From NCBI GenBank assembly GCA_028874365.1, contig JAPPJZ010000062.1, positions 52,611-116,610 on the forward strand: a stretch of DNA of 64,000 bases, read 5' to 3'. The notes under the pieces are model-generated. The model saw nothing but the letters and a program-made list of their open reading frames with translations, had not been told where the DNA came from and did no database searches. The stretch comes from Chloroflexota bacterium (lineage in GTDB: Bacteria; Chloroflexota; Dehalococcoidia; Bin125). A program made the translations under genes and the position numbers. Positions 1 through 47,594 of this stretch are shown piece after piece (positions within the stretch are counted from its first letter, which is position 1; each line of letters opens with the position of its first letter).

Positions 1-871
1 CGTTCAGATTCAACCCTGGCGGCAACTCCGAGACCATCGCCGCCTCCGCCTGCCAGCCGGCTCGAGCCCGGTCCAGCAATCCCGACACCTCCGCGATGGC
101 CGCCGCCGTCCTCACTCCCCACCAGGTCAGATTCTGACCGTCGCAGAGGTACACGTGCCCCTCGCGCGCGGCAGACAGCCGCTGCTGGGCCAGCAGCTCC
201 TCGGCGTGACGTTCGCGAAATCGATACGGCTCCGACGGCAGCAGGATCACGTCGGGATCCAGCTCGATCAACTCGGTGAGCTGTAGCCGCGGGTAGCGCC
301 CGCGGGTCGATTCCTCGCAAACGTTGATCGCCCCGCATACGCGGAGCAGGTCGCCGATGTATGTGTCGCCCGACGCGGCCATGTACGGGTTGCGCCAGAT
401 CAACGCCGCCGCTCGAACCCGAGGTCGCAGCCGCTGGATGTGACGCTGCTCTTCGAGCGCTTCCTCCAGCCCATCGCTGATCTTCAGAGTGATGCCGCCG
501 ACCAGGCGAGCCACATTCTCAATCTCGGCCTTCGCCTCCTCGGCAGTCCGCACGTCCCCGACATAGACGTTCAGCCCGGCCTTGCGCAGCGCGACGACAT
601 CCTCCTCGTTGTTCTCCTCGCGATTAGCGAGCACCAGCTGTGGGTTGAGCCCAATGATTCGCTCGACGTCGGGATTCTTCGTTCCCCCGACCTTGCGGAT
701 CGCATTCGTGACCTCTGCCGGCTCGACGCAGAACCTCGTCACCCCGACCAGCCGATTGCCGAGCCGCATCGAGCAGATCAGCTCGGTGAACGACGGCACG
801 AGCGAAACGATCTCGCGCGCCGGACGCTCCAGATCGAGCTCGGTGTCGGTCGCATCAACTACGCTTGGCAT
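1..871 (-). CDS. BtuF/FhuD-type (Peripla_BP_2-like) substrate-binding protein, C-terminus runs off window; no signal peptide
   Basis: Minus-strand frame translated by hand: MPSVVDATDTELDLERPAREIVSLVPSFTELI...RYPRLQLTELIELDPDVILLPSEPY...VYLCDGQNLTWWG. These are the classic helical-backbone binding-protein motifs. ATG at 871 is bounded by an in-frame stop at 902-904. Not in the ORF track because the 3' end is cut by the window edge. Confidence 0.6.
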   Translation of the reverse strand, partial: MPSVVDATDTELDLERPAREIVSLVPSFTELICSMRLGNRLVGVTRFCVEPAEVTNAIRKVGGTKNPDVERIIGLNPQLVLANREENNEEDVVALRKAGLNVYVGDVRTAEEAKAEIENVARLVGGITLKISDGLEEALEEQRHIQRLRPRVRAAALIWRNPYMAASGDTYIGDLLRVCGAINVCEESTRGRYPRLQLTELIELDPDVILLPSEPYRFRERHAEELLAQQRLSAAREGHVYLCDGQNLTWWGVRTAAAIAEVSGLLDRARAGWQAEAAMVSELPPGLNLN

Positions 872-929: not shown

Positions 930-1829
930 ATGACGATCGCACCGGTCTCCGGCGCCGAAGTCGCGCTCCGCGATGTGACCGTCGGCTACGGCGGGCATCG
1001 AGTCTTCGAACACCTCACCCTGAACATCCCCGGCGGCGTCTTCACCGGCATCATCGGAGGCAACGGCTCGGGCAAGAGCACGCTGCTCAAGACCATCGCC
1101 GGACTGCTGTCCCCGTCCCAGGGCGACGTAACGGTTGGCGGCGATTCGCCCACCGCCGCGCGCGCATACCTCGGCTACATGCCCCAGGTCAGCAACGTCG
1201 ACTGGCGGTTCCCGCTGACGGTTCGTGAACTCGTCGCGATGGGGCGCTACCAGTTCAGCTGGAAGCGCCGCATCGGCCGACTCATCCGTTCCCAGGAGGA
1301 TCGCATCGCCGTTGATCGCGCGATGGCGATGATGGACGTCCAGGATCTGCACGATCGCCAGATCAACGAACTCTCCGGCGGCCAACGCAAGCGCGCGCTG
1401 ATCGCGAGGGCGCTGGCCAGGCAGCCGCGAATCCTGTTGCTCGACGAGCCCTCCGCCGCGCTCGACGCAGTCTCCGACGATCAGCTCTTCGATGTGCTCT
1501 GCGAGCTGACCGACCTCGGCACCTCTGTGATCATGACCACCCACGATCTGTCGACCGTGATTGAGCACTACGCCGAGGTGATCTGCGTGAACGCGACCGG
1601 AGGCGGTATCGTTGCCCAGGGCCCGCCCACGGAGGTCCTCACGGAGGAAGTCCTGCGCCGCACCTTCGGGCGCGAACTGGCGATCTTCTCCCGTGGTGAC
1701 ATGCACCTGGACGAATCAGAGCCTCGCGAACATCACACATTGCGCCTCGCCGACGAGCTGCAGCTTCACATGGACGAGCACGAGCATCGCGCCGGCCATG
1801 TCCACGGCGCATCACGTGAGCGTGATTAA
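930..1829 (+). CDS. ABC transporter ATP-binding protein, ZnuC/MntB-like metal-type, His-rich C-terminal tail
   Basis: Walker A GGNGSGKST, signature LSGGQRKR, Walker B LLLDEPSAALD, H-loop TTHDL, EVICVN motif like ZnuC EVLCLN. Tail HMDEHEHRAGHVHG. Real start is MTIAPVSG at 930; the track ORF 582.. is an upstream in-frame extension. Confidence 0.85.
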   Translation: MTIAPVSGAEVALRDVTVGYGGHRVFEHLTLNIPGGVFTGIIGGNGSGKSTLLKTIAGLLSPSQGDVTVGGDSPTAARAYLGYMPQVSNVDWRFPLTVRELVAMGRYQFSWKRRIGRLIRSQEDRIAVDRAMAMMDVQDLHDRQINELSGGQRKRALIARALARQPRILLLDEPSAALDAVSDDQLFDVLCELTDLGTSVIMTTHDLSTVIEHYAEVICVNATGGGIVAQGPPTEVLTEEVLRRTFGRELAIFSRGDMHLDESEPREHHTLRLADELQLHMDEHEHRAGHVHGASRERD

Positions 1830-3079: not shown

Positions 3080-5179
3080 TCAACGCTGCGACTCGTCGTT
3101 GGGCGACGGAGGAGCGTGCGGCAAGAACCACCAATTGTTCCGCGATTGCGCGGAGTGGTTGATGAACAGCGACCGCACGGTCGCCTCCTCAGGCGGCACC
3201 GACAGCACGATCGCCAGGTCATTCGCCAGCAGTTTCACGTTCCCTCGCGGGATTACGATTTCGCCACGCCGGTGAATCGCCGTGATCACCGATGCCTCGG
3301 GCAGCGGCAGTTGCGAGACCATGCTCGACTCGGCCTGGGAACCCGGCTCCACCCGCGCCTCGATTTCGATCGCACCGACCAATCGCCGCACTGGCGCCGG
3401 CGCCGCCCGCTGACCCGAGTCACGGTCGCTCGGCTGGGCAACCTCTCGCAGGACGTCGCGCTGCGTCAGCATGCCCATCAAGCGTGACTCGTCCTCGCGG
3501 GCGACGACCGGCAACTGGCGCACATCGTGATCGACCAGCACCGACAGCGCGTAGCGCAGGTTGTCGTCGGGGTGAACGAAGACCGGCGCGACGACCGCCA
3601 GGTCAAACGCCCGTCGATCCATCTCGCCGCGCTCAACCGCCGATGCCACGTCGGTCGCCGTCACCAGGCCGATGAAGCGGTTCTGCTGGTCGGCCACCGC
3701 CACCACGTTCCCGCGCGATTGGCTCATCGCGTTGGCCAGGTCCGCGATTGTTGCCATTCTCGACACGATTGGCGTGTCAGTGCGCATCGTCGCCGCCACC
3801 GTGAGATCGTCGAGCGGAGACGGTGCGGACTCCTCCTGGACGTCCAGGCCGGCTCGGCGCAGGCGGACGTTGTAAATCGTGTCCCGGGTCAGCAGCTGGG
3901 CCAGCGCCGCGGCCAGCGCCACCGCGGTCATCAACGGCAGGATCAGCGAGTATCCGCTGAGCTCGAACACGATGAACAGCGACGTCAACGGCGCCCGCGC
4001 CGCCGCGGCAAAGACCGCCGCCATGCCCACCACGACATACGTGCCGGTCGGCCCCACGATGCTCGGCAGCGCCGACTCGAATCCCGCACCCATCAAGGCG
4101 CCCAACGTCGCGCCCACGAACAGCAACGGCGCAAACGCCCCGCCCGAAGCGCCCGAGCCAATCGTCAGCGACGCCGCGATCAGCTTGAGCACCATCAAGA
4201 TCGCCAGCGTTGAGACGGCCGTCCCACCCTCGGCGAAGATTCTGATCTGATCCAGCCCGGACCCGAGAATGTTCGATTCGATCAGCGCCAGCACACCGAC
4301 GCCGAACAGACCCAGAATCGGTCGAACCGACATCGACACGCCGAGGAACTCGAACACGTCCTCGGTGAAGAAGCGCGTTCGGACGAAGAGAATCCCGGCA
4401 ATCGCCGCCGAGATGCCGACGATCGCATGCAGGAACAACTCCCAGCTGCTGTTGATGTCGAAGTCGGGCAGGTCGAGCCCCGCCGAGTCGCCGTAGAAAG
4501 CCACGGCGACGATGTTCGCGACCACCGCAGCCACGACCACGATCGTGAAGTTGCGCACGTTGAATCGACGCAGCACCACCTCGAGCGCGAAGAACGTGCC
4601 GGCGATTGGCGTGTTGAACGTGGCCGAGATGCCGCCCGCCGCAGCCGCCGCCACCGTCAGGACCAGCATGTCGGACGGTTGCTTCGTCACGCGGCCAATC
4701 GTCGAGGCCAGCGACGCGGCGATCAGGACGATCGGACCCTCACGTCCGGCCGCGCCGCCGCCGCCCAGCGTGAATCCGGTCGCGACCAGCTTGGCCGGCG
4801 CAATGATCGGTCGCACGAATCCGCCGGCGCGTTCGACCGCGACCATCACGTACGGCACGCCCGCGCCCTGCGATTCGGACGCGACCCGCGAGACGACGAA
4901 CGCAACCGGAATCGCCGCGATCGCCGGAACCAGCATCAGGGTCCAGCCGCCCGCGAGACCATCGAGCAGCGACGTGAGCTCGTCGAAGACCATGGTCAGA
5001 CCGTCGACCAGGGCGCTCAGCGCCACGGCCGCGAATCCCGCTGCCAGACCGACCGCCACCGCAAGCAACAGCGGCGCGAGGTTGCGCGGGACGCGAACCC
5101 GGCCGACCAGCGGCAGGCGCCAGAAGAGATGCGCCGACCGGGTGCCGAATCGCCTGGACGGACGGCTGACGAGGGACAT
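3080..5179 (-). CDS. ClC-family chloride channel with C-terminal CBS pair and TrkA-C-like domain
   Basis: GREGP selectivity motif and GSGASGG in N-terminal ~450-aa membrane domain; two CBS repeats and an RCK-C-like tail. Confidence 0.9.
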   Translation of the reverse strand: MSLVSRPSRRFGTRSAHLFWRLPLVGRVRVPRNLAPLLLAVAVGLAAGFAAVALSALVDGLTMVFDELTSLLDGLAGGWTLMLVPAIAAIPVAFVVSRVASESQGAGVPYVMVAVERAGGFVRPIIAPAKLVATGFTLGGGGAAGREGPIVLIAASLASTIGRVTKQPSDMLVLTVAAAAAGGISATFNTPIAGTFFALEVVLRRFNVRNFTIVVVAAVVANIVAVAFYGDSAGLDLPDFDINSSWELFLHAIVGISAAIAGILFVRTRFFTEDVFEFLGVSMSVRPILGLFGVGVLALIESNILGSGLDQIRIFAEGGTAVSTLAILMVLKLIAASLTIGSGASGGAFAPLLFVGATLGALMGAGFESALPSIVGPTGTYVVVGMAAVFAAAARAPLTSLFIVFELSGYSLILPLMTAVALAAALAQLLTRDTIYNVRLRRAGLDVQEESAPSPLDDLTVAATMRTDTPIVSRMATIADLANAMSQSRGNVVAVADQQNRFIGLVTATDVASAVERGEMDRRAFDLAVVAPVFVHPDDNLRYALSVLVDHDVRQLPVVAREDESRLMGMLTQRDVLREVAQPSDRDSGQRAAPAPVRRLVGAIEIEARVEPGSQAESSMVSQLPLPEASVITAIHRRGEIVIPRGNVKLLANDLAIVLSVPPEEATVRSLFINHSAQSRNNWWFLPHAPPSPNDESQR

Positions 5180-6811: not shown

Positions 6812-7183
6812 CTACAAGCGCGCGAGCTGTTGACCCAGCCACGCGGCCGCCAATCCGCCGACCGCGGACACGAGCAGATTGGTCAACGCCCAGACCCAGC
6901 GGCCGCCGTTGAGCAGATGCAGCGTGTCCAACCAGACGGTCGAAAACGTGGTGAATCCGCCCAGCAATCCCACCGTGATCGCCAGGCGCATGTTGTCCGA
7001 GACGCCGAGTCGCTCCAGGAACAGCGTCGCCACGAGTCCCAGCACCAGCGTCCCGCTGAGGTTGACCACCAGGATGCCCAGCGGCAAGCCGTCGGGCTGA
7101 CCAACCCAGCGATTGAGGAGGTAGCGCAGCACGGAGCCGGCCGCGCCGCCGAGCGCAATCGAAGCGATCGCCGCAACCGTCAT
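6812..7183 (-). CDS. crcB: fluoride exporter CrcB/FluC
   Basis: 123 aa, four TM, conserved GGFTTFSTF motif. Confidence 0.85.
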   Translation of the reverse strand: MTVAAIASIALGGAAGSVLRYLLNRWVGQPDGLPLGILVVNLSGTLVLGLVATLFLERLGVSDNMRLAITVGLLGGFTTFSTVWLDTLHLLNGGRWVWALTNLLVSAVGGLAAAWLGQQLARL

Positions 7184-8102: not shown

Positions 8103-8657
8103 GTGAGTTGTCCCGCCGCCGTCGTTCATCGACACTGTGCGCGACGCCCCACGCGTTGGATACAGGTTGAGGTAAACATCATCGCTGATTCTGTAAACGT
8201 CCAGGCAGCGCTCGCCCAGAACTTCGAAGAACTGCGATCGTTGCTCGACGCCTGCGCCGATGACCGCCTCGACGAACGCCTCGGGCCCGTCGAGTGGTCC
8301 GTTCGCGAAATCCTGCTGCACGTCGTCCACTCCGAGCGTTGGCTGCATCCTCAGCTCATGCTGCTGCGCCGCGAGGTCGCGCCGCAACTCCCGATCCCGC
8401 CCGTCGGCGGCGTCAACCTGCCCGACACGGAGTCCGAGGCATCGCTGCCGGAACTGCGATGGGCACTGACCAGCGTGCGCGAAGACACCGAGCGTCTGCT
8501 CTCCGACCTGTCATCCGATCAGCTCCGCGAACCGGCCAACATCGAACTCGACGGCGATGTGCTCGATATGTCCCTGCGAACCATCGCGCTCACCGCCGCC
8601 GATCACCAGCTCTTCCATGTCCGCCAGATTCAACGGACGCTCGGCATCGCACCCTGA
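8103..8657 (+). CDS. DinB/YfiT-like (DinB_2 family) protein
   Basis: ILLHVVHSERW and HxxxH-type four-helix-bundle motifs; start codon uncertain (probably an internal GTG/TTG near 8160). Confidence 0.6.
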   Translation: MSCPAAVVHRHCARRPTRWIQVEVNIIADSVNVQAALAQNFEELRSLLDACADDRLDERLGPVEWSVREILLHVVHSERWLHPQLMLLRREVAPQLPIPPVGGVNLPDTESEASLPELRWALTSVREDTERLLSDLSSDQLREPANIELDGDVLDMSLRTIALTAADHQLFHVRQIQRTLGIAP

Positions 8658-8738
8658 TCGCCATCCGCCCACGCTTGCCATAATCGATAGCCTGCGCGCA
8701 CCGGCCCCGCGCACTCCGCTCATTCAGGGAGCTTCGCA

Positions 8739-9308
8739 ATGCAACGCACCGCCGACGAGTACCCGGCCCGTCTCGACATCGAGTACCCGCAATCGCTCGA
8801 TCGCATCTCGACCCTGCTCCGACCGATCCTCGCAATCCCCGTCGTCGTCCTGCTCTGGTTCATCCCGCCGATGCTCTGTACGCCGGTCGCCCTGGTGCTC
8901 GTGGTGCGTCGCAAGTATCCGCGCTGGTGGTTCGACTTCAATCTCGAAGCCACCCGCTTCCACAACCGCGTCTATGCCTATCTCAATCTGATGACCGACC
9001 GGTATCCATCGACGGACGAAGAACAGTCGGTGCGGCTTGACCTCGACTACCCCGACGCCGCCCAGCTCAACCGATGGCTGCCGTTGTTCAAGTGGTTCCT
9101 GGCGATTCCGCACTACATCATCATCTGGGTGCTGGTCGGCATCCAGAACATCGTCGTGTTGATCGCCTGGTTCGCGATCCTGTTCAGCGGAACCTATCCG
9201 CGACCGCTGTTCACCTTCATGCTCAACGTCGAGCGCTGGGTCCTCCGCGTCGAGGCCTACGCCTTCCTCCTGATCACCGACCGCTACCCACCCTTCCGCC
9301 TCGGCTAG
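8739..9308 (+). CDS. DUF4389 domain membrane protein
   Basis: KYPRWWFDFNLE motif and two hydrophobic segments typical of DUF4389. Confidence 0.7.
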   Translation: MQRTADEYPARLDIEYPQSLDRISTLLRPILAIPVVVLLWFIPPMLCTPVALVLVVRRKYPRWWFDFNLEATRFHNRVYAYLNLMTDRYPSTDEEQSVRLDLDYPDAAQLNRWLPLFKWFLAIPHYIIIWVLVGIQNIVVLIAWFAILFSGTYPRPLFTFMLNVERWVLRVEAYAFLLITDRYPPFRLG

Positions 9309-9311
9309 CAG

Positions 9312-12300
9312 CTACGCCGCCAGTCTGAGCGCACCGTGCAGCTCGATCCGCCGCAGGAACCACAGGAACGCGCCCAGATTGAGCGCAAACAGCGCTGACA
9401 ACGCGCCAAACAGGATGCCAACCCCCGGCCAGTCGATGATGAACTGCAGCGCCGGCACCACATCCCGACCATCCGGCGTGAGCGCGAAGAAGTCCAACAG
9501 CACCGCGCCCGCCTGCGTCCCCACGATCAGTCCCGCTCCCAGTCCAATCGCGATGATGATCAGTTGCTCCAGCGCGATCAATCCCAGAATCTGGCGCATG
9601 CTCATCCCGACGCTCTGACACACGGCAAACTCCACCCGTCGCGCCTGCGCTGTCACTGCGGTCAGCACCACCAGACCGAACGCCGACGCGATCGCCACCG
9701 CCGCCAGCGCGCCGATGAAGACCCCATTCCACGAAGCGACGATCAGCGGGTCGGCCGCCAGTTCCTCCCGGGCGCTCTCGATCGTGGCGATGCCATCGCT
9801 CTCGATCGGCAGCTCGTACCTGGCCAATAGACCGCCCCAGCGCTGCAGCGACGCCGACGCCCACAGTTCGTTGCTCACGGCCAGCGCCACGCCGGCCGCG
9901 GCGCTGCCATACAGCCGATCGATGAATGCCGCGCGATCGATCAACACGAGCGGATCATCGCGCTGCGGGTCGTAGCTCGGGAACGTCTCAAACTGCCCGC
10001 CGACGAGGAACGTCATCGAGGATGGCCCGATCCGCAGTTTGACCGTCTCGCCGATGTTGAGCCGTCCCTGTGCGATGGCCTCCGCCGAAAACAACGCCGG
10101 CAACGGGCCCCGATCCGCGATGTAGCGCACCCCGCGCAGCGACGATGGGATCGCATTCCAGCGATAGCGCGCCTCTGTTTCGGTGACGACGAAGAAGTCG
10201 AGCGGCTCCTCGCCGACCTCCAGGGGCGTCGCCTCCCAGCGTCCTGAGCTGAAATCGGCCAACAGGTAGCTCTCGCCACGCCGGGCGTAGCTCAGATCGC
10301 CAAGCAAGATTTCTCCCCCGGCGCGTGTGAGCGCCAGGTCAAGCGACACCAGTGTCAGTGGCGCGACTGGACGCTCAGCCACCGTGGGGCTGAACCTGCT
10401 TTGCCCCTGGATCAGCCGAGCGCCCTCCAGAGGCAGATAGGCCGCCGGTTCCTCCGTTAAGCGGTTCGAGATCGTGATCCACTCCGGATCTTCTTGAACC
10501 TGAGTGGGACTGAGCGTGTCAATCGCATACCACCAGTAACGTCCGATCGCGTCCAGCACCTTGATGCCGATCACGGTCTCCTGCTCGAGCTGCACAACCG
10601 CAATCCGTAGCTCCAGCAGGCCCCCAAAATCGTCGATCACCGCTCCCTGGACTTCGTTAAGCGGTACCGCAATCTGCTGCAGGTCCGCCGGCGGCAACGC
10701 CCAGTCAGCCCCTTGTTCGGCCAGCTGATCGGCAACCACCTCGGAGTCCAACGCAGCGATCTGCAGATGACCCGAGTCTTCATCCCCTTCGAACGCCCCC
10801 ACGATCCGCTTGATCTGTGCCACCGATGCACCGCTGGCGTCCTCAATCGCCTCATATTGAACAATGTCCGAGACCGGCTCGGTCAGCCGTACCGACGCGC
10901 CCACCGCGTGCAGCGAACGATCGTTGTAAGACGTGTCGAGCGTCGTCCGGAACGAGGCCGCAAACACCGCCAGCGCACCCGCGATCGTCAGCAACAGCAC
11001 CGTCCGCGCGTAGTGCGTCGGTGTGCGACCCAGATACCAGGCGCCCATCAGCAGCGTCAGCGAGCGCCAGGGCGACGCAAGCCGGGCCAGCAGCCGCATC
11101 GTCGGTGGGAACAAGCGCAGCACGATTAGCCCAACCACGAACAGCAACACGGTCGGCGTCGCGACCGCCAGCCAGTCCAGCCGCGTCTCACCGACCAACG
11201 GCGAATCGATCGGATCGCCGGCCCATTGCAGTTCGAAGATCAGCAGAGCGCCCAGCGCTGCTACAGCCGCGTCGATCAGGGCGCGCTGCGTCCATGATGC
11301 GGGCGGCCGACCGCGCTCCCGGCGGGTCGTGACCATCGTCTGGCGAGTCGCCCGGTACGTCGGCACTGCCTGAGCCAGCAGCGCCAGCACCCCTGCGCCC
11401 ACGGCCAGGTACCACGACTCGACCGGCAGCGAGACCGGCAGGAACGGACCCGCGCCGGTAGCGGCCAGCGCCTCATCGAAGGGCGGCACGAACCCCAACA
11501 GACTGACCAGCCCCATGCCGATCAGCGGCCCCAGCAATATCGCCGGAGCGGTCAGAATCGCAGCCTCGACGATGTGCATCACGGCGACATCGCGCTGCCG
11601 GGCGCCTCGCGAACGTAGCCAGGCCGTGTCCTCGGTGCGTTGCTCGGCGAGCATCGCCGATGCCACCACCGCATAGACCAACACCGCGCCCACGAGCTGC
11701 AGCACGATCATCAATAGCGTCGACTGGGCAAACTGGAAGCGTTGGCTGAACCCGACCAGCGTGTCGACCAGTTCCGTCTCCTGCTGGATACCGTCCACGG
11801 ACTGCGAGATTCGCCGAGTCATCTGCTCCAGCGAATCGGCCGCCGCAGACGCTTCCGCCGCCGACGCGCCGTGCAAGTCGGTCCGGAACCGCTGCAGCAA
11901 CGACAGACGCAACGTGGGCGACTGCTCGGCCAGAATGCCGAGAATCCCCTCCCGCGTGGTCCAGAACCGCAGTTCCGTGTCCAGCGCCGCGATCGGCAGG
12001 AACAGCGGATCGAGCGTTGACCAACGCCGCTCGTCGGTCGACGGCTCGATGATCCCGACAATCCGCACGCGAGTCTCATGCTCGGTGCCCAGCCAAAACG
12101 GTTGCGCCAGTCGTTCGTCTCCAACGTCGAGTCCAAAGTCCTGCGCCTGCCTCCGCTCGACCATCACCTCCAACAGATCAGTCGTTGCCTCCGGTCTACG
12201 GCCGGCCACGACTTCTGAGAGGTCCGCCACATCGCTCTGCGCAACGAACGTGGCGTGATCGGCGTCCGGCGGATCGAACGGCTGCTCCTCGGTTCGCAGG

Positions 12301-12659
12301 ATGTATCCACCGGTACGGAGCGCCGTCATTCGGCCAACCGTGAGCGACGAGGCCGCCGCCGAGACTTCGTCATGGATCAGCGACTCAACGTCGTCAACTG
12401 ACGCTGAGTCCGCGGTCACGTTGGTCTGATTGAATCGCAGGTCCAGCGTTGCCGGATCGGCATCCGCGAGCGTCTGCCGCAGTCCCAGATCACGCACCGC
12501 TTCGATGAAGATCGGCGCGCTGCTCGCCAGGCCCACCGCCAGCAGCGCCCCGATCAGCAGCACCGTCGAGAGCCTGGGCGCCGAAGCGATACGCCGCAGC
12601 GCCAGTCTGCCGAGCTCTCGGGCCGTTTCACCGCGTCGAGTCGGAATCTGCTGCGACAT
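9312..12659 (-). CDS. ABC-transporter permease, FtsX-like double-domain (YbbP/MacB-type), 1115 aa
   Basis: Two FtsX modules, each with a large extracytoplasmic loop; C-terminal FtsX signature ...SVGMSMRQILGLIALEQL.... Confidence 0.8.
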   Translation of the reverse strand: MSQQIPTRRGETARELGRLALRRIASAPRLSTVLLIGALLAVGLASSAPIFIEAVRDLGLRQTLADADPATLDLRFNQTNVTADSASVDDVESLIHDEVSAAASSLTVGRMTALRTGGYILRTEEQPFDPPDADHATFVAQSDVADLSEVVAGRRPEATTDLLEVMVERRQAQDFGLDVGDERLAQPFWLGTEHETRVRIVGIIEPSTDERRWSTLDPLFLPIAALDTELRFWTTREGILGILAEQSPTLRLSLLQRFRTDLHGASAAEASAAADSLEQMTRRISQSVDGIQQETELVDTLVGFSQRFQFAQSTLLMIVLQLVGAVLVYAVVASAMLAEQRTEDTAWLRSRGARQRDVAVMHIVEAAILTAPAILLGPLIGMGLVSLLGFVPPFDEALAATGAGPFLPVSLPVESWYLAVGAGVLALLAQAVPTYRATRQTMVTTRRERGRPPASWTQRALIDAAVAALGALLIFELQWAGDPIDSPLVGETRLDWLAVATPTVLLFVVGLIVLRLFPPTMRLLARLASPWRSLTLLMGAWYLGRTPTHYARTVLLLTIAGALAVFAASFRTTLDTSYNDRSLHAVGASVRLTEPVSDIVQYEAIEDASGASVAQIKRIVGAFEGDEDSGHLQIAALDSEVVADQLAEQGADWALPPADLQQIAVPLNEVQGAVIDDFGGLLELRIAVVQLEQETVIGIKVLDAIGRYWWYAIDTLSPTQVQEDPEWITISNRLTEEPAAYLPLEGARLIQGQSRFSPTVAERPVAPLTLVSLDLALTRAGGEILLGDLSYARRGESYLLADFSSGRWEATPLEVGEEPLDFFVVTETEARYRWNAIPSSLRGVRYIADRGPLPALFSAEAIAQGRLNIGETVKLRIGPSSMTFLVGGQFETFPSYDPQRDDPLVLIDRAAFIDRLYGSAAAGVALAVSNELWASASLQRWGGLLARYELPIESDGIATIESAREELAADPLIVASWNGVFIGALAAVAIASAFGLVVLTAVTAQARRVEFAVCQSVGMSMRQILGLIALEQLIIIAIGLGAGLIVGTQAGAVLLDFFALTPDGRDVVPALQFIIDWPGVGILFGALSALFALNLGAFLWFLRRIELHGALRLAA

Positions 12660-15600
12660 CAGTCGGCGCCCTCCCGCAGCAGAGGAGCCGCTTCACGGCC
12701 CGTCGCCCAGCGTGAGATCGCGGTCGTGCCCAGCACCGCACATAACACGATCACCCCGACACCGATACCGGCCAGGACCCAGTCGATCGACAGCACCGTC
12801 GGCGGCGCAGCCGCCACCCCTTCAGCCGTGACGTCGAGGAACGCCAACAGCGCGCCCGCCACTGCCCGCCCCAGGCCGAACCCCAGCGCCACACCGGCCG
12901 CCAACACGAGGCCGACTTCCACCGCGGCTTGCGCGGTCAACCCGGCCCGACCTGAGCCGACGGTCCGCATCAGCGCAAACTCGCGAGCCCGCTCGCCGCC
13001 GGCCGCCGCGAGTGTGAAGATCAGCGCCGCCGATCCCACGATCAAGAGTCCGATGAACCCGACCACGAACAACGCCGCCGCCCCGCCCGAGCGAAACGGA
13101 TCCTCCTCCGCCGCCACGATCTTCGCCTCCGCGTCGAACACTGTGCTGGACAGATACACATCGTCCAGCAGCTCGGCGGCAATCAGGCGTCCCGCATTGC
13201 TTTCTGTCGCAGTCCACACCTCCGTGATCGGCAGCACCGCCTGAACCGCCGCGACCAGCGCCGCCCCCCGCAGCGCTAGGAGATCCACGATCAGGAACCC
13301 GCCCTGCGCCGGATTGAGCGTGGGAAAGTAGTCAACGGCCGACTGAATCCGGACCGGGATGGTCGCATTGCTGACACCGATCGGGACGATGTCGCCGACA
13401 CTGAGGTTGGCGGTCTCCATCGACGTTCGATCCATCGCCGCATTGACCGGCAGGTTCGGCGATTCGCGCACGATGATTCGCTCATCGCTGGCCGCAAGCT
13501 GCGACCAGTGGTAGCGCAGACCTCCGCCCTCGAACGAAATCCGGTCTTCGCCCGCGCCGCCTGAGGCCGGCAGCCACGGTCCAGCCTCGTCAAACGCATC
13601 CACCGCGACGGATTGCTCCCCGACCTGCGCGTTCAAGTCGTCCATGTACAACGTCCCGGTCGGCGCTCGAACCACCCGCGCCTGCGGACGCAGAATGATC
13701 GCCGCGATCCGCAGTGGTTGCTCGAGCCCGCCCAGAGGCGCGCGAAACGTGTTCCAGTCCCCGTCAACCACGGAAGCCGTATTCGTCCGAAACGGGCGCA
13801 TGTGCACCTGTCCACGGGCGTCGAGCACCCGCGCCGCCAGTTCAAGATTGCTGTTCCCCGGATTGCTGCGCACGCGAACCGTCAACGCCTCCGCCCCGTC
13901 CGGCAACTCCTGCCCGGCTCGCCCCGGCTCACGCTCGATCGCCGCCAACAGCTCGTCCGGCGGCGTGCCCAGCAAGTCCTCGTCCAGCGCCACGATCTCG
14001 GACAGCCGACTCGTCTGCAGCCCCAGCAGCACGACGCGGCTGCCTTCCCGATCGCCGCCGATCGCGCCGATCCCGCGATACGCCGCTGCCGCGCTGATTC
14101 CCTGACGGCTCTGCAGCGGCTCCGTCACCCGGCCCACCGTCGAGTTCGACAGGTTGCCGCCGATTGACACCCCGCGCAGGTCCGAACCGACCTCATATTC
14201 AATCCGCGACCGCTCGACGGTCCGAATCGTCGACGCATACGTCGCCGAGATCAGTCCCACGGCCGTGATGAACGCAACCAGGGCCGTCAGCAACATCGGG
14301 CCCGTCGGATTCCGAGCCACGCTGAGCACCCCGAGGTACAACCACGACGGAATCGGTGATCTCGAGAGCAGTGCCGCCGCGAAGCCCCACACCCGCGGGG
14401 CGACCCGCATGATCGTCAGTGCCGCGCCCAGCAGAAGCAGTCCGGGGCTCAGCATCAGCACCGGATTGATCCCGCCCGACTCAAACGCGGCCAGCGCCCC
14501 GCCCGACGCTTCGGTCTCGAACTGAAGAAACAGCACCGTTGCCAGCGCCAGCAATGCCACGTCGAGCCACGCCCGTTGCACCAACGACTGCCGCTGCGGG
14601 CGCCCCTGCGCCACGCGCTCGTTCGTCCGCTGCCGCGCATCGAACCAGGCCGGCGCCGCAAACGCGATCCAGGCGATCACCGCGCCCGCAACTGCCAGCC
14701 CCCACGCCTCCGCCGTCAGCCGCGTATCGAACGGCTCGCCGCCCGAGACCCGAGCCACTGCCTCCAATCGACCGGCATGACTCAACGCAAAAGCCGCCAG
14801 CGGCGCGCCGAGAATCGCCGCCGGTAGAGCCGCGACCCCGCCGAGCATCGCCTGCGCCCCGGCCTGCTGCCATGGTTTCGCTCCGCGAGCCGCGAGCCGT
14901 TCGCGATCGACCCGAGTCCGCTGCGCCATCACGCGTCCGACCAGCGCCACGCCGAACATCGCCACCGCGGCGATCTGCAAACCGGCCAACAGCGACTGCC
15001 CTGCCGAAAACTGCGCCTGGCGTACGAACGTCTGCAGCGTGCCCACCAGGAGCGTGCCCGCCGAGCCACCCTCCAGGCGACTCAGCTGTTGTTGCCACGC
15101 GCCCAGCGACTCGATCACGGCCTCAACCTGGTCGGAGTTAATCGCTCCGGTGTCCAGTTCCGTCCGCATCCGATGCGTCACCGGAGCTCCGAGTCGCTCC
15201 AGCGCGTCGGGCTCGGCGAACATGCCGAAATACGGCACCTCCGCGCCGCCCAGCGTGATATCGAACTGCAACTCGAACCAGACGTCCGTGTAGTGGAACG
15301 CCAGCACCCGCGTGACATCGTCCACGACCGGTTCGATGATCCCGCTGATTTCGAACTGCATCGCCTCGCTGAAACTGACCACGCTGCCGACATCGATGCT
15401 GAGCTGCTCGGCGAGCCGCGCGCCGATCACCACCTCGTCCGCCGAACCGGCCCAATCGCCCCGCACCAGCCGCGCGTTCGTCCGCAGTTGCTCGAACGAC
15501 ATCAGATACGCCAGCAGGGACTCGTTCAGACCGTTGTCGAGGCGCGTAAACCCGGCGAACGTCTCGGGAGTCTCCATGATCCGCCGTGTGTCGCTGGCCA

Positions 15601-15901
15601 GACCTGGGAACCGCTCCAGATGCCGCTCGCGGGCTTCCGCCGCTTCTCGCTCGATGCGATCGAAGTCCTCAGCGCTCGCCGGACGGAAGGCCCGCGAATG
15701 GTCCGCGAACGTGGTCCCCCGCGGCGATTGCTCGATCAACTCGCGAAGCGCGAGGTCGGCCGACGCCGCTCGAAAGACGAGCGGCAACGCCACGAGCGCG
15801 GCGGCGATGATCAGCAGCGACGCAGCCCCGAACATCAATAGCCAACCGCCCCGCAGTTCGCGTAGGGCGGCGAGCCTGAGTAGGCGGAAAAGTCCAAGCA
15901 T
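12659..15901 (-). CDS. ABC-transporter permease, FtsX-like double-domain, 1080 aa
   Basis: Same architecture as neighbour; C-terminal FtsX ...MRTVGSGRAGLTAQAAVE...; start overlaps the stop of the downstream gene (translational coupling). Confidence 0.8.
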   Translation of the reverse strand: MLGLFRLLRLAALRELRGGWLLMFGAASLLIIAAALVALPLVFRAASADLALRELIEQSPRGTTFADHSRAFRPASAEDFDRIEREAAEARERHLERFPGLASDTRRIMETPETFAGFTRLDNGLNESLLAYLMSFEQLRTNARLVRGDWAGSADEVVIGARLAEQLSIDVGSVVSFSEAMQFEISGIIEPVVDDVTRVLAFHYTDVWFELQFDITLGGAEVPYFGMFAEPDALERLGAPVTHRMRTELDTGAINSDQVEAVIESLGAWQQQLSRLEGGSAGTLLVGTLQTFVRQAQFSAGQSLLAGLQIAAVAMFGVALVGRVMAQRTRVDRERLAARGAKPWQQAGAQAMLGGVAALPAAILGAPLAAFALSHAGRLEAVARVSGGEPFDTRLTAEAWGLAVAGAVIAWIAFAAPAWFDARQRTNERVAQGRPQRQSLVQRAWLDVALLALATVLFLQFETEASGGALAAFESGGINPVLMLSPGLLLLGAALTIMRVAPRVWGFAAALLSRSPIPSWLYLGVLSVARNPTGPMLLTALVAFITAVGLISATYASTIRTVERSRIEYEVGSDLRGVSIGGNLSNSTVGRVTEPLQSRQGISAAAAYRGIGAIGGDREGSRVVLLGLQTSRLSEIVALDEDLLGTPPDELLAAIEREPGRAGQELPDGAEALTVRVRSNPGNSNLELAARVLDARGQVHMRPFRTNTASVVDGDWNTFRAPLGGLEQPLRIAAIILRPQARVVRAPTGTLYMDDLNAQVGEQSVAVDAFDEAGPWLPASGGAGEDRISFEGGGLRYHWSQLAASDERIIVRESPNLPVNAAMDRTSMETANLSVGDIVPIGVSNATIPVRIQSAVDYFPTLNPAQGGFLIVDLLALRGAALVAAVQAVLPITEVWTATESNAGRLIAAELLDDVYLSSTVFDAEAKIVAAEEDPFRSGGAAALFVVGFIGLLIVGSAALIFTLAAAGGERAREFALMRTVGSGRAGLTAQAAVEVGLVLAAGVALGFGLGRAVAGALLAFLDVTAEGVAAAPPTVLSIDWVLAGIGVGVIVLCAVLGTTAISRWATGREAAPLLREGAD

Positions 15902-16093
15902 GATGCTGCAATGCTACGACTGGCCGTACTGTTGAACGCCTCCGGCTCCTCGGTCTGCCCTTCGGTTGCCGCTGAGCCGATGGGCGCTTAGCCTGCACCT
16001 AACTAGTTCGTCCGCTCGGTCGTTGGGCGGAACGCCCGCACACCCCTTCCGAGCCGAATCAACATCGCCGGAACCACCGTCAGGAGCACGTGT

Positions 16094-16882
16094 ATGACGA
16101 CACAGACAGAAACGCACTCACAGATCGCCGTCGAGGTCTCCGGCCTCAAGGTCAACGCGCTCCAGGACGGCAGCGGACCCAACATCGTCGTCCTGCACCA
16201 CTCCACCGGCCCCGGCTGGATCCCGTTCTACGACCTCCTGGCCCAGAATCACACCGTCACCGCTATCGACATGCCCGGCTACGGGCAGTCCGAGCGCCCG
16301 GTCTGGGCTCGTCACCCGCGCGACATCGCCATCATGCTGCACAGCGCCATCCACAAGATGGGCATCGACACTGACGCCAACCTCGTCGGCATGGGCTTCG
16401 GCGGCTGGGTCGCGGCCGAGCTCGCCTGCATGCATCTGCATGGTCTCGACAGCCTCACCCTGATTGGCGCAGCCGGCGTCCAACCCGACGAGGGCGAAAT
16501 CGCCGACGTGATCTTCTACGAGTTCGAGGAGTACGTGAAGCTCGGCTTCTCCTCCGACGAGGCCTACGCCGACATCTTCGGCGACGAGGCCGCCCCCGAA
16601 CTGAAGGAGCTCTGGGACTTCTCGCGCGAGATGACCGCGCGTCTGACCTGGAAGCCCTGGATGTTCAACCGCCAGCTCCCGCATCTGCTCACCGAGCTCG
16701 AGACGCCGACCCTGCTGCTCTGGGGTGAAAACGACCGAGTCGTCCCACACGGTGTCGCCGAGGTCTACGACGCCAGCCTGCCCAACAGCAGGCTCCAGGT
16801 GCTCGAAGGGCTCGGCCATCTCGTCGAACTCGAAGACGCCCAGGCCACGGCCGACGCCGTGATCGCGCACATCAGCTCGTAG
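16094..16882 (+). CDS. alpha/beta-fold hydrolase
   Basis: HG-type oxyanion region VVLHHSTGPG, nucleophile elbow GMGFGG, SD GGAG 8 nt upstream. Confidence 0.8.
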   Translation: MTTQTETHSQIAVEVSGLKVNALQDGSGPNIVVLHHSTGPGWIPFYDLLAQNHTVTAIDMPGYGQSERPVWARHPRDIAIMLHSAIHKMGIDTDANLVGMGFGGWVAAELACMHLHGLDSLTLIGAAGVQPDEGEIADVIFYEFEEYVKLGFSSDEAYADIFGDEAAPELKELWDFSREMTARLTWKPWMFNRQLPHLLTELETPTLLLWGENDRVVPHGVAEVYDASLPNSRLQVLEGLGHLVELEDAQATADAVIAHISS

Positions 16883-24754: not shown

Positions 24755-26803
24755 TTATTCCGAATCATCCTCAGACGTCGCCCGCGTTTGTCTCAACGTC
24801 GTGACATTGCGGTCATCAATCCGCTCGTAGTTTACCGCATCGAATGTCGATGCAATCAGCTGCAGGCCGAGTCCACCGATCGGCCGCTCGAGCAGGTCCA
24901 ACTCCGTGTCCTGCCCCGTCGCCTCCAGCGGATTGAATGCGGGGCCGTTGTCCTCGTAGCGAACCACGATCGTCTCGCCTTCCCGGCGCATCGCGATCGA
25001 GATGTCCGCTTCGTTCTCTCGACCCGGGAACCCATGCTCGATCGTGTTCGTGAACAGCTCGTCCAGCGCCAGGTTGATCCGATACAGCTCCATCGGATCG
25101 AACCCCTCTGTTTCGGCGAACCGCTCAACGAAGGCGGCTACCCGCGGGAGCGACGTCTCCAGAGTCGGCTGTACCACCATGCGCCGCCATCCCGACGCCA
25201 GGTGCGTCTCACCGCGCCCTGGGATGAACGGCTCTTCAAGCGCCCCGCCGACGAACTGAACCGCCATACACGTAATGTCGTCGAACTGCTTGGCGTCGCC
25301 CGAGAACGTGCGCAGGTCGGTCAGCACCGACTCCATCAGCTCCTGCGGGCCCTCACCGTTGAGCCCGGCGAGCTTCTCTTCCAGCCGCTCCCGACCGAAC
25401 TGCTGCCCGGCAACGTCCTCCGCCTCCGTGATTCCATCGGTGTAGAGGAACATCGACGCCCCTTCATCGAGCGGAATCGTCGTCTCCGTGTAGTTGAGCT
25501 CCGGCAGCACGCCGAGCGCGATCCCGCCGGTCATCGGGATCATCTCCGGCCCCTCATTCGGGCGCATCAGGTACGGCGGATCGTGGCCCGCATTCACATA
25601 GGTCAGCGTGCCCAGCTCCAGATCAATCACACCGAAGAACGCCGTGATGAAGAGTTCCTTCGGATTCATCGAGCAGAGCTGGTCGTTCGTCTCGGCAACG
25701 GCCATGCTCGGGTCGGCATGCTGATTCGCCGCGCTCCGCAACAGCGCGCGTCCAACCGCCATCATCAACGCCGAGGCCACGCCCTTGCCCGACACGTCCG
25801 CGATCGCGAACGCCAGGTGCCCGTGATCGGTGATGAACGCGTCGTAGAAGTCGCCGCCCACATCCAGCGCAGGCGTCATGAACGCGGCTACGCCGGCGCG
25901 CGGATCTTCCGGCAGGTCCGACGGCACCAGCGCCGCCTGCACCGAGTGCGCCATCTCCAGGTCGTTGCGAATCTCGCGCTGCGCATCCTCAAGCGCCTGG
26001 TTCTTCTCCGACAACTCAACCGTGCGCTCCTCGACGATCGCATTCAGTCTGATCTCACGTGCGCCGACCTCGCGAGCCATGTCCAGGAACACGCCCGCCA
26101 GCTCCCCGTACTCGTCGCGCGTCAACGATGTGTTCCGCAGCGATGCAGCGACCGACGGTTCCGGTTGCTGCCCGTCTTCGACCGCCCGCGCGGCGCGAAC
26201 CATCAATCCAATCGGGCGCGCCAGCCGCTTGGCCAGGAACCAACTGGCCAGCACCAGCAGCAGCAGCAGGGCGATCACCCCGATCAGGTACTCGAGCCGG
26301 TACAGATCGAAGTGATTGCCGATGTGATTGCTCGTGAACTCGACCCTGACCGCACCGAGAGGACTACCGTCCTCGGCGCGGATCGCCGCCGTCCCGGCGT
26401 AGCGACCGTCGGTCAGCGCCTCGACGACCGCTCCGTCGCCGCCCTCCATCGCCTGGCGCGCACTTGCCACCTCAGTCCGACTGATCGGTCGCGAGCCGTC
26501 CGAGGACGCCGCAAGCCGCGCCTGCACATTGAACACCCAGATGTTGTCCAGGTCGACGGCTTCCCCCTCGACGTCAGCCGCGGAAGCCGCGTTCAAACGA
26601 ATCAGTGCGTTGACTTCATCTTCGCTCAGCGACGCCAGGTCGGCTTCCAGCAGCGAACGCGCAATCGCCTCGGCAAAGACCTCTGCCGACTTGCGTCCCG
26701 TGTCACCCTCTGAATCCAGCGCAAGCAGCAGCAGCACGACTGCCGAAGCGATCACCCCGGCGAGCGTCAGGACGGAGATCATGCCGACGATGCGCCCAGC
26801 CAT
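24755..26803 (-). CDS. membrane sensor PP2C (SpoIIE-type) phosphatase fused to C-terminal GHKL/RsbW-like serine kinase domain
   Basis: TM1, ~150-aa outside loop, TM2+HAMP, PP2C (DVSGKGVASALMM...YVNAGH...LYTDGITEA), then HATPase_c (LALDELFTNTIEHG). Confidence 0.8.
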   Translation of the reverse strand: MAGRIVGMISVLTLAGVIASAVVLLLLALDSEGDTGRKSAEVFAEAIARSLLEADLASLSEDEVNALIRLNAASAADVEGEAVDLDNIWVFNVQARLAASSDGSRPISRTEVASARQAMEGGDGAVVEALTDGRYAGTAAIRAEDGSPLGAVRVEFTSNHIGNHFDLYRLEYLIGVIALLLLLVLASWFLAKRLARPIGLMVRAARAVEDGQQPEPSVAASLRNTSLTRDEYGELAGVFLDMAREVGAREIRLNAIVEERTVELSEKNQALEDAQREIRNDLEMAHSVQAALVPSDLPEDPRAGVAAFMTPALDVGGDFYDAFITDHGHLAFAIADVSGKGVASALMMAVGRALLRSAANQHADPSMAVAETNDQLCSMNPKELFITAFFGVIDLELGTLTYVNAGHDPPYLMRPNEGPEMIPMTGGIALGVLPELNYTETTIPLDEGASMFLYTDGITEAEDVAGQQFGRERLEEKLAGLNGEGPQELMESVLTDLRTFSGDAKQFDDITCMAVQFVGGALEEPFIPGRGETHLASGWRRMVVQPTLETSLPRVAAFVERFAETEGFDPMELYRINLALDELFTNTIEHGFPGRENEADISIAMRREGETIVVRYEDNGPAFNPLEATGQDTELDLLERPIGGLGLQLIASTFDAVNYERIDDRNVTTLRQTRATSEDDSE

Positions 26804-30791: not shown

Positions 30792-31814
30792 CTACGTCGT
30801 CGACAGCGTCGGGGCGCGCAGCTCGGCCATGATCTGATTCTCGGACAGCGCTTCCGCGTCCTTCTTGAAGATCTGCACGCGGTGGCTGCCGAAGTCACAA
30901 ACGTACAGCCGACCCTCGTGATAGCGCACGCCCTGCGGGAAGCGCAGCAGTTTCTGCTCTTCCAACGATGTCATCTCGCGCAGGCGCAGCGTCTTCTGGT
31001 TGGCGCGAATGTACTCGCGACCCATCCGACCTAGCGTCGCCGCGCCGTAGAACGACTCCACGTAGCGGCCCCGATGGTCGTACATCACTACGCGATGTTT
31101 GTTCCGTTCCGCGACATACAGGTCGCCATGTTCGTCGACCGCCACGCCGCACGGCCGAACCACTTCGTAGCCCGGTCGCGTGCCGAAATCCATGATGTGC
31201 TCGCCCGACGCCGTCAGTTTCTGCACCCGGTCGTTACGCCAATCCGAGATGTAGACGCTGCCTTCCGCGTCGAAGGTGATTCCCCACGGCATGTTGAACT
31301 GCCCCGGAGCGTCGCCGAACTCCCCGAATCCGCCGATGTATTCGCCCGCGGACGAGAACTGCTGAATCCGGTGGTTCTGCGTGTCCACCACCCAGACGTT
31401 GCCCTCGGTGTCGAAGGCGAACCCGGACGGACGGTCGAGTTGACCTGGATCCGAACCGTGCTCGCCCCACTGGTTCAGCTTCTCGCCCTCCGGCGAGTAC
31501 GTCGTGATGTTGTGGTTGCCCTCATCGAGGACGTGCAGATTCCCGTCCTCGGTGCGTAGCAGTCCGACCGGCCACAGGTGACCCGTGTCGGCCATCGTGC
31601 CCAGGTCGCCGTGCGTCAGGTCGTCGCCCAGCTCGTCGTCGTACTTCAACGAGACCATCCGGATGTTCCCGCCGACGCCCAATTCGGTCCGGCCGACCAC
31701 ATAGATGCGATCGTCGCCGACCGCGATGTCGACAGGGAACGTGGTCACTCGGCGCATGCCGAGCACGCGCTCATAGGGGTAGCCGCAGCGCAGCATCGCA
31801 TGTGGAAATGCCAT
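30792..31814 (-). CDS. NHL-repeat beta-propeller protein
   Basis: Six repeats of the (F/Y)xxPxGxAxDxxGxxYVxDxxNxRV type. Confidence 0.75.
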   Translation of the reverse strand: MAFPHAMLRCGYPYERVLGMRRVTTFPVDIAVGDDRIYVVGRTELGVGGNIRMVSLKYDDELGDDLTHGDLGTMADTGHLWPVGLLRTEDGNLHVLDEGNHNITTYSPEGEKLNQWGEHGSDPGQLDRPSGFAFDTEGNVWVVDTQNHRIQQFSSAGEYIGGFGEFGDAPGQFNMPWGITFDAEGSVYISDWRNDRVQKLTASGEHIMDFGTRPGYEVVRPCGVAVDEHGDLYVAERNKHRVVMYDHRGRYVESFYGAATLGRMGREYIRANQKTLRLREMTSLEEQKLLRFPQGVRYHEGRLYVCDFGSHRVQIFKKDAEALSENQIMAELRAPTLSTT

Positions 31815-33141: not shown

Positions 33142-33175
33142 TAGCTTGTTCCGTTCCGTTGCTTGCGTTGGTCCG

Positions 33176-33210
33176 CTCTCCCCCTGGGAGAGGGATGGGG
33201 TGAGGGTTCC
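33176..33210. repeat. family-B hairpin repeat
   Basis: ctctccccctgggagagggatggggtgagggttccc. Confidence 0.65.
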
Positions 33211-34608: not shown

Positions 34609-34776
34609 ATGTGGCACCTCTCCAGAAACGTCCGTGCGCGGGTACGAAAAGTCGGTCAAGCCCGCGCGATTGCTCTACAAGCGCAATATAGGACATGAGA
34701 GGCTTCCAATTGAGTACGTGTGCGTACCATTTCGATTGACTTTGCGGCGCGTGTTGGTTCAGCGAGCCAGGAATTC

Positions 34777-45215: not shown

Positions 45216-45297
45216 GATCGGCTCCTTGCTGAAAGACTGGCCTGTCGAGGATAGGCGCTGGGATCGCGTAGTCTCGGCATGATCAAGGGAGGTCGGC

Positions 45298-46509: not shown

Positions 46510-46516
46510 GCCCGCG

Positions 46517-47551: not shown

Positions 47552-47594
47552 GCCGCGTCAGCGTACTAGGCAGACAACGCGTTACTCTCGCGCT

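Follow-up and report, generated by a model that had tools for sequence, protein, structure and literature searches.

Tandem YbbP-like double-FtsX permeases without an adjacent ATPase gene in a Dehalococcoidia clade

It is the partners that define a type VII ABC system, and the genes encoding them are normally linked. In published structures, BceB, the permease of the BceAB-type systems, shows a single large extracytoplasmic domain (TM7-8), and it operates together with the BceRS two-component system; these antimicrobial-peptide resistance transporters combine a 10-TM FtsX-fold permease with two ATPase copies. To our knowledge, the TIGRFAMs definition of the acidobacterial duplicated orphan permeases (ADOPs, TIGR03434) describes them as essentially never adjacent to ABC ATPase genes. 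The ADOP name, the paralogous clusters that these permeases form and their MacB-type periplasmic domains are already described (PMC3914696). The 10-TM YbbP architecture is defined by helices arranged 4+2+4, TM1 and TM7 each being followed by a large extracytoplasmic domain (PMC12646458). YbbP is a single permease whose gene adjoins the ATPase gene ybbA, with the periplasmic hydrolase gene tesA co-located.

In the window (the whole 64-kb stretch of DNA that was analysed), two large minus-strand ORFs stand in tandem: ORF B (12659..15901, 1080 aa) upstream and ORF A (9312..12659, 1115 aa) downstream. They are collinear paralogues (24% identity over 958 aa, E 3e-28), and each matches Pfam FtsX (PF02687) in two stretches, scoring 62.9 bits in A and 35.6 bits in B against a gathering score of 25.5 bits. 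Hydropathy, together with an AlphaFold model of A, gives each protein 10 TM helices arranged 4+2+4, TM1-2 and TM7-8 each enclosing a large extracytoplasmic domain; the four-helix TM module with a Porter/Sabre-type extracytoplasmic domain between its first two helices is present. A Foldseek search with the A model returned E. coli YbbP (9ge6_A) as the best full-length structural match, and the BceAB-type structures 7tcg, 8g3a and 8s5g were also among the matches. A and B are both YbbP-like permeases, paralogous to each other, within the type VII (MacB/FtsX-fold) ABC superfamily. An earlier note on this DNA had described them as tandem YbbP/MacB-like double-FtsX permeases, and the FtsX scores, topology and fold uphold that description. 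The note's further suggestion, that the two form a heterodimer, is not needed, since each 10-TM protein makes up a pseudo-dimer by itself, as YbbP does (PMC12646458).

Mapping the A model onto the minus strand placed extracytoplasmic domain 1, a Porter/Sabre-type alpha/beta fold between TM1 and TM2, at 11739..12503 (~residues 53-307) and extracytoplasmic domain 2, between TM7 and TM8, at 9744..10943 (~residues 573-972). The latter contains a jelly-roll-like beta-sandwich insertion at 10104..10667 (residues 665-852), an extra element relative to YbbP, than which A and B are ~300 aa longer. On the cytoplasmic side, the TM2-TM3 loop of A (11586..11645, residues 339-358) and its TM8-TM9 loop (9588..9644, residues 1006-1024, with a modelled helix at 1008-1016) occupy the positions of coupling helices 1 and 2 in YbbP, and are predicted to be the coupling helices expected of a type VII permease; the TM5-6 linker is likewise YbbP-like. 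The protein ends in a cytoplasmic C-terminal tail (9315..9356, residues 1102-1115) that closes with ...RRIELHGALRLAA. In B, also on the minus strand, the TM2-TM3 loop at coupling helix position 1 lies at 14858..14923 (residues 327-348).

Shared architecture notwithstanding, A and B are only 12-13% identical to YbbP, and there are two paralogous permeases here as opposed to one. The NCBIfam YbbP equivalog model NF041854 (cut-off 999) gave 15.1 bits over 46 residues of B and no match to A. The pair also differs from BceB in having two large extracytoplasmic domains per protein, and no BceRS-like histidine kinase or response regulator was found in its flanks. In gene layout it resembles the ADOPs, since A and B are internally duplicated FtsX permeases without an adjacent ABC ATPase; the likeness is one of layout only, with no match of either protein to TIGR03434 among NCBIfam models at E 1 or better. 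Moreover, ADOPs form large paralogous families within a genome, whereas the clade described here belongs to a different phylum and carries a single conserved B-A pair per genome.

The two genes meet at a TGATG junction (12657..12661, minus strand), in which one base is common to the TGA stop of B and the ATG start of A, with a GGAGG-like motif ~10 nt upstream. This overlap represents translational coupling of the two permeases, as the earlier note had proposed. Upstream of B, a 192-bp divergent intergenic region (15902..16093), the presumed promoter region, separates the pair from a divergently transcribed alpha/beta hydrolase gene (16094-16882), the neighbour that the note had named; no sigma-70 consensus, terminator or Rfam match was found around the operon. 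By analogy with TesA, this hydrolase could be taken for an extracytoplasmic partner of the permeases. We rejected this analogy because the hydrolase has no signal peptide; it is also not orthologous to the hydrolase adjacent to the related locus L059 (27% identity over 122 aa), and it is not conserved beside pairs of 37% identity.

We then asked how far this arrangement extends. A genome scan with a clade-only alignment recovered the B-A pair from the MAGs of at least 47 Dehalococcoidia species, with identities of 37-94% and with the B orthologue directly upstream of A in all 47 loci. The junction is a 1-nt overlap in 37 of these (TGATG or TAATG, and TAGTG in one locus) and a 1-nt gap in eight (TGAGATG or TGAAGTG); L051 and L053 were left unscored. 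No MacB/LolD-type ATPase is encoded within 10 kb of the pair in any of the 47 genomes. Because the same layout recurs in so many genomes, many of them closed chromosomes (OZ244861.1, OZ241982.1 and OZ253456.1 are closed chromosomes of this clade), the missing neighbour is not an assembly artefact, and the flanking cognate ATPase that a better assembly might have revealed is not there. That the unlinked state persists even in pairs at 37% identity is unusual for a type VII system. The two genes move together between differing neighbourhoods without gaining an ATPase. A related single permease, L004, is likewise unlinked.

Within the window itself, a six-frame scan for Walker A and LSGGQ motifs found a single ABC ATPase, at 930-1829, and Pfam scans of the other large ORFs added none; there is no cognate MacB/LolD/FtsE-type ATPase, fused or adjacent, in the 64 kb. 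The earlier note was therefore correct that the pair has no adjacent cognate ATPase and that the ATPase at 930-1829 belongs to another system, and its label of ZnuC-type is roughly right: the best scores of this ATPase are against MntA, AztA, corrinoid, FecE and heme importer ATPases, with ZnuC lower, making metal/siderophore/corrinoid importer type the more accurate label. As the only ABC ATPase of the window, with no recognisable FecCD-type permease beside it and an orthologue in the same syntenic block as the pair at most loci (7-10 kb beyond the end of A), it might be thought to power B and A. We consider this very improbable: the protein is of the importer class, its gene is paired divergently with a Peripla_BP_2 binding-protein gene, and it is only 28-30% identical to the type VII ATPases of the permeases' relatives. 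Furthermore, its orthologue is missing from the flanks of two 37%-identity loci, L003 and L054, both of which keep the pair. General synteny explains the linkage seen elsewhere.

Outside the clade, the closest sequence relatives of A and B belong to uncharacterised cassettes, four of them from Actinobacteria and Anaerolineae with the order permease-permease-ATPase-ATPase (L005, L006, L055 and L059) and one with the order adaptor-permease-ATPase-ATPase (L060). The relatives' cassettes include tandem double-FtsX permeases of ~1100 and ~900 aa whose genes often overlap; where the context is known, two MacB/LolD-type ATPases, separate or fused, follow directly downstream, the first of which (A1) bears a C-terminal AbrB/MraZ-like extension and is further marked by the motifs GFVWQQ and RNLLPYL. 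Distant relatives linked to ATPases occur in Actinobacteria, Anaerolineae and other groups, at only 23-29% identity to A and B, and the broader family numbers ~3,670 cluster representatives when matches of E 1e-30 or better are counted. The cassettes place the long, A-like permease first, whereas in the window A follows the more divergent B. Cross-comparisons are all at ~25% identity, and it is the cassette's first permease that gives the higher score with A as well as with B. A profile search with the relatives' A1 ATPase returned no clade chromosome among its best 120 matches, which were mostly fused double ATPases and Micromonospora sequences, and a search with the A1 extension returned no clade member among its best 120, mostly fragments of 80-140 aa.

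Conservation within the pair bears on whether it still engages a motor. The C-terminal tail is the most conserved stretch of A (entropy 0.15, in the lowest 0.6% of windows), with R1104 invariant and A1110 and R1112 nearly so, ATPase-linked relatives included. The TM2-TM3 loop of A has a mean entropy of 0.25, compared with 0.97 for the protein overall (lowest 2.7% of equal-length windows); L348, R351, G352, A353 and E365 are invariant even among the ATPase-linked relatives. The TM8-TM9 loop (entropy 0.38) has R1007, G1018 and E1031 invariant family-wide, and extracytoplasmic domain 2 is the most variable region (entropy 1.39). In B, the TM2-TM3 loop is again conserved (0.32 versus 0.85 overall, lowest 2.7% of windows), whereas the second coupling loop and the C-terminal tail, at the 34th and 41st percentiles, show no special conservation. 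The putative docking elements of A, which by analogy match ATPase-contacting positions of YbbP or MacB, are thus strongly constrained, although the TM2-3 loop could also be highly conserved for structural reasons inside the FtsX fold itself. Both permease genes are under strong purifying selection (dN/dS 0.06-0.09, within an overall range of 0.055-0.14). Loss of the ATPase genes could in principle be the first step in the decay of a former four-gene cassette, of which the pair would be a functionless remnant, and two loci, L053 and L058, do hold interrupted or truncated copies of A. However, ORFs are intact and of constant length in nearly all 47 species and the overlapping junction is conserved; together with the purifying selection, this refutes a pseudogene reading, to which we give practically no weight.

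The earlier note had left two options for the motor: an ATPase encoded elsewhere, or an ATP-independent scaffold. We favour the former, and consider it probable that the ATPase of the B-A pair is encoded elsewhere in the genome, for several reasons: firstly, the nearest relatives of known context all carry two MacB/LolD-type ATPases downstream, a remote guide given that A and B are only ~25% identical to them; secondly, A shows some of its strongest conservation in the first coupling-helix loop and the C-terminal tail; thirdly, both genes are under purifying selection. The competing view is that the pair permanently lacks an ABC ATPase and either serves as a passive conduit or scaffold that needs no ATP or is powered by a cytoplasmic partner that is not an ABC protein. 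The deep divergence over which 47 species lack a type VII ATPase within 10 kb, the movement of the two genes into new neighbourhoods without acquiring one, the unlinked state of L004 and the stable orphan state of the ADOPs (PMC3914696) are all compatible with such a view. The ADOP precedent also makes the unlinked state less surprising than the note implied in stating that FtsX permeases normally have an adjacent ATPase. Nevertheless, all structural matches that are characterised FtsX-fold proteins operate with an ABC ATPase, and the residues conserved in the loop and tail of A are the same ones that are invariant in ATPase-linked relatives. We know of no precedent for an ATP-independent FtsX-fold protein. 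An ATPase-free pair is therefore unlikely in our estimation, and nothing we found positively supports the scaffold option; it is similarly doubtful that a non-ABC partner docks on the conserved TM2-3 loops and C-terminal tail.

In our preferred reading, one coupled transcript would yield B and A in roughly equal amounts, and each protein is a pseudo-dimer that carries a pair of extracytoplasmic domains and, on the cytoplasmic side, a pair of coupling helices. Two MacB/LolD-type nucleotide-binding domains produced from another site in the chromosome would most likely dock on each permease; judging by the relatives, they probably come either from a fused protein or from separate long and short ATPases (A1 and A2). 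By binding and hydrolysing ATP, these would set the extracytoplasmic domains in motion through mechanotransmission. The motion may do work on the outer face of the membrane, whether its target is a hydrophobic or amphiphilic molecule to be extracted or expelled, or a partner in the envelope. Our results establish the fold and topology, the conserved pair and junction, the clade-wide lack of a linked ATPase, its linkage in distant relatives and the strong constraint on the cytoplasmic docking elements, whereas we infer the existence of the distant ATPase, its type, the stoichiometry and the substrate.

The layout is mildly unusual and does not amount to a new kind of machine; the motor most likely lies elsewhere. 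Neither outcome touches a long-standing open question, and the value of the locus is mainly for specialists, as a clean, clade-wide example of two tandem 10-TM permeases whose genes remain side by side although the ATPase genes are not linked to them. Should no ATPase exist, it could no longer be assumed that an FtsX fold always requires one, and this pair would be the first machine of that fold to be uncoupled from an ATP-binding cassette. If the ATPase does lie elsewhere, the pair would provide a useful case of an unlinked or shared ATPase for operon-based ABC annotation in Chloroflexota. The pair also points to a large, uncharacterised family of YbbP-like permeases of ~1100 aa; its canonical form relies on two different ATPases, one of which bears an AbrB/MraZ-like tail.

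The two permeases that the earlier note had placed in tandem on the minus strand were recovered as translated open reading frames, the upstream B (12659-15901; 1080 aa) and the downstream A (9312-12659; 1115 aa), each with two stretches scoring above the Pfam gathering threshold for FtsX. The translational coupling proposed for them is borne out by a TGATG junction, in which the TGA stop of B and the ATG start of A have one base in common, with a GGAGG-like motif ~10 nt 5' of it; the sequence around the operon matched no RNA family and showed neither a sigma-70 consensus nor a terminator. The two proteins align collinearly as paralogues (24% identity across 958 residues, E 3e-28). Compared with the closest genomes, dN/dS was 0.084-0.085 for A and 0.055-0.066 for B; these low ratios indicate that both are functional genes, and leave next to no credence for the idea that they are decaying.

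Topology prediction upheld the FtsX-type assignment: hydropathy gave 10 membrane helices per protein, arranged 4+2+4, with extracytoplasmic domains of ~250 aa after TM1 and ~400 aa after TM7 in both A and B. We modelled A with AlphaFold2 from 48 homologues (mean pLDDT 83, pTM 0.73) and searched the PDB with Foldseek, which ranked E. coli YbbP (9ge6_A) first, in a full-length alignment (E 3e-16), followed by MacB, BceB, LolC/E, HrtB and YtrF; a profile search of PDB sequences found only YtrF, LolC/E/F, BceB, PsdB and MacB. The helix layout of the model agrees with that published for YbbP, which has 10 TM helices, Porter/Sabre domains between TM1-2 and TM7-8, a TM5-6 linker and coupling helices between TM2-3 and TM8-9, and binds its ATPase YbbA at two per one YbbP (PMC12646458). 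As judged from modelled fold and predicted topology, A and B are YbbP-like permeases of type VII, the MacB/FtsX-fold ABC class. By the NCBIfam equivalog model they lie outside YbbP orthology, with far sub-threshold matches only (A to LolCE, B to YbbP).

Homologues of A at 37-93% identity were confined to Chloroflexota MAGs. Scanning one genome per species, we found 47 loci. All belong to Dehalococcoidia MAGs, among which are many closed chromosomes (2.3-3.7 Mb), and several record names hint at an origin in sponge microbiomes. All 47 have an orthologue of B immediately upstream of A; the stop and start codons at the junction overlap by 1 nt in 37 loci and are 1 nt apart in 8 (2/47 unscored). 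Because the three pairs of 37% identity (L003, L054 and L058) retain both the pair and its junction among other neighbouring genes, the two-gene unit itself is the conserved entity. A is interrupted or truncated at two loci, L053 (about 10000-13300) and L058 (10001-12277; a 758-aa product reading directly into a BPD_transp_1 fragment), possibly through faulty assembly, possibly through genuine disruption of the gene. Convergent with A is a DUF4389 gene (8739-9308, plus strand), whose end is 3 bp from the A stop codon; this arrangement recurs in L001, L002, L056 and L057, and is absent beside the pair of L003.

The lack of an adjacent cognate ATPase held across the clade: in none of the 47 loci was an ATPase of the MacB/LolD type present within 10 kb of the pair. 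A search of all six frames for the Walker A and LSGGQ motifs detected one ABC ATPase in the 64 kb, at 930-1829 (plus strand), in agreement with the earlier note, and Pfam scans revealed no other among the remaining large ORFs, which include catabolic enzymes, an MFS transporter and a SpoIIE phosphatase. Its orthologue, within a syntenic block, is the sole ATPase seen near the pair in the 47 loci. That this nearby ATPase drives the pair is nonetheless highly improbable, since its best scores are to the importer ATPases MntA, AztA, corrinoid, FecE and heme, a different transporter class. Its gene is divergently oriented to one for a Peripla_BP_2 binding protein (1-870, minus strand), and in L056, a contig encoding an identical ATPase (8116-8934), no FecCD/ABC-3 permease for this Peripla_BP_2 protein and FecE/BtuD/MntA-type ATPase was found within 10 kb; this lineage thus seems to accommodate ABC components whose genes are unlinked. 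The gene just past that of the Peripla_BP_2 protein encodes a hydrophobic, polytopic protein of 272 aa that has no Pfam match, possibly an unrecognised membrane partner.

Outside the clade, relatives share only 23-29% identity, and five had informative gene context: firstly, L005 encodes permease(1109)-permease(951)-ATPase(335)-ATPase(246); secondly, L006 (Micromonospora), permease(1060)-permease(902)-ATPase(331)-ATPase(246); thirdly, L055 (Ardenticatenales), an ECF sigma and anti-sigma followed by permease(1117)-permease(901)-fused double ATPase(558); fourthly, L059 (Chloroflexota), hydrolase-permease(1101)-permease(902)-fused ATPase(536); and lastly, L060, adaptor-permease(974)-ATPase(362)-ATPase(235). 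In L004 a permease stands alone, without an ATPase in the vicinity. The ATPases of L005 and L006 have their best scores against LolD, MacB or YbbA, the type VII class. The first or longer ATPase carries a conserved, AbrB/MraZ-like C-terminal extension of ~45 aa (EE.VVLDR.GRLQLP...RVRL.LE.DH..VWP), database fragments of which are annotated AbrB/MazE/SpoVT or MraZ-like, and an unusual GFVWQQ..RNLLPYL motif within its ATPase domain (L005 16189-17196, L006 15890-16885, L060 10581-11669); in Chloroflexota the extension serves as the linker inside the fused double ATPase (L055 10001-11677, L059 9818-11428). Two different ATPase domains appear to serve each pseudo-dimeric permease in the ATPase-linked form. 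In a full HMMER scan, 3,670 cluster representatives reached E 1e-30 or better, and most measured either about 1100 or about 950 aa. They make up a large, uncharacterised family of YbbP-like proteins that is usually linked to ATPases.

Is the ATPase of A and B encoded elsewhere, or is there none? Mean entropy across 46 A orthologues was 0.97 overall and 1.14 and 1.39 in the extracytoplasmic domains, falling to 0.25 in the TM2-3 loop, 0.38 in the TM8-9 loop and 0.15 in the C-terminal tail (lowest 2.7%, 13% and 0.6% of equal-length windows); for 45 B orthologues the values in the corresponding two loops and tail were 0.32 (lowest 2.7%), 0.61 (34th percentile) and 0.68 (41st percentile). The two loops house the coupling helices in YbbP, and in MacB a C-terminal helix also contacts the ATPase. 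The key residues of these elements in A (L348, R351, G352, A353, E365, R1007, G1018, E1031 and R1104) are invariant even in ATPase-linked relatives. A docking surface that had lost its partner should accumulate changes, as the N-terminal tail has done (entropy 1.39); conservation of these elements, most marked in A, makes ATP independence or a non-ABC partner unlikely. Together with the tolerated unlinked ABC components, it suggests that a type VII ATPase for the pair is, fairly probably, encoded elsewhere.

The divergent hydrolase noted upstream is indeed present, an alpha/beta hydrolase gene (16094-16882) 192 bp from B, with a luciferase-like monooxygenase next beyond. An analogy with YbbAP-TesA was rejected: the hydrolase lacks a signal peptide, is not orthologous to that of the L059 cassette and is not retained beside the 37%-identity pairs. 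Hydrolases without signal peptides also occur in L059 (2647-3465, adjacent and co-directional) and L003 (19505-20284, 6 kb off); the recurring hydrolases share 27% over 122 aa and are not orthologous. Pfam detects three further alpha/beta hydrolases in the window, and since the genome is rich in them the recurrence is probably coincidental. No Bce-type kinase/regulator pair was found in the flanks.

Elsewhere in the window, a CLC channel with CBS and TrkA_C domains (3080-5179, minus) lies ~1.6 kb from a small ORF (6812-7183, minus) that is a putative CrcB by position, matching the CrcB gene in syntenic L001 and L056; a LysM protein lies between them, followed by a DUF309-dUTPase fusion gene, and the region possibly serves the export of halide or fluoride. 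We also observed a 682-aa protein (24755-26803, minus) joining a SpoIIE-type PP2C phosphatase to a C-terminal, anti-sigma-factor kinase-like HATPase_c_2, and an adjacent DUF1501-DUF1800 pair (31978-34659, minus) followed by an NHL-repeat beta-propeller protein (30792-31814). GC skew turns from negative to positive at about 44000-48000 (cumulative minimum near 46 kb), which could mark an origin of replication or a switch in strand bias of another kind; no cluster of DnaA boxes turned up there, and the genes are beta-lactamase-family and thiolase-like.

Duplicated FtsX permeases without a neighbouring ATPase gene are already known under the name ADOP (TIGR03434), orphan permeases that are duplicated, occur in clusters and carry MacB periplasmic domains (PMC3914696); neither A nor B matches the NCBIfam model for ADOP. 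What is new is a phylum-distinct family with a strictly conserved tandem of two duplicated FtsX permeases and an overlapping junction, and an unlinked state that is clade-wide, in contrast to the ATPase-linked relatives. The pair would be remarkable only if the genome proves to hold no ATPase for A and B.
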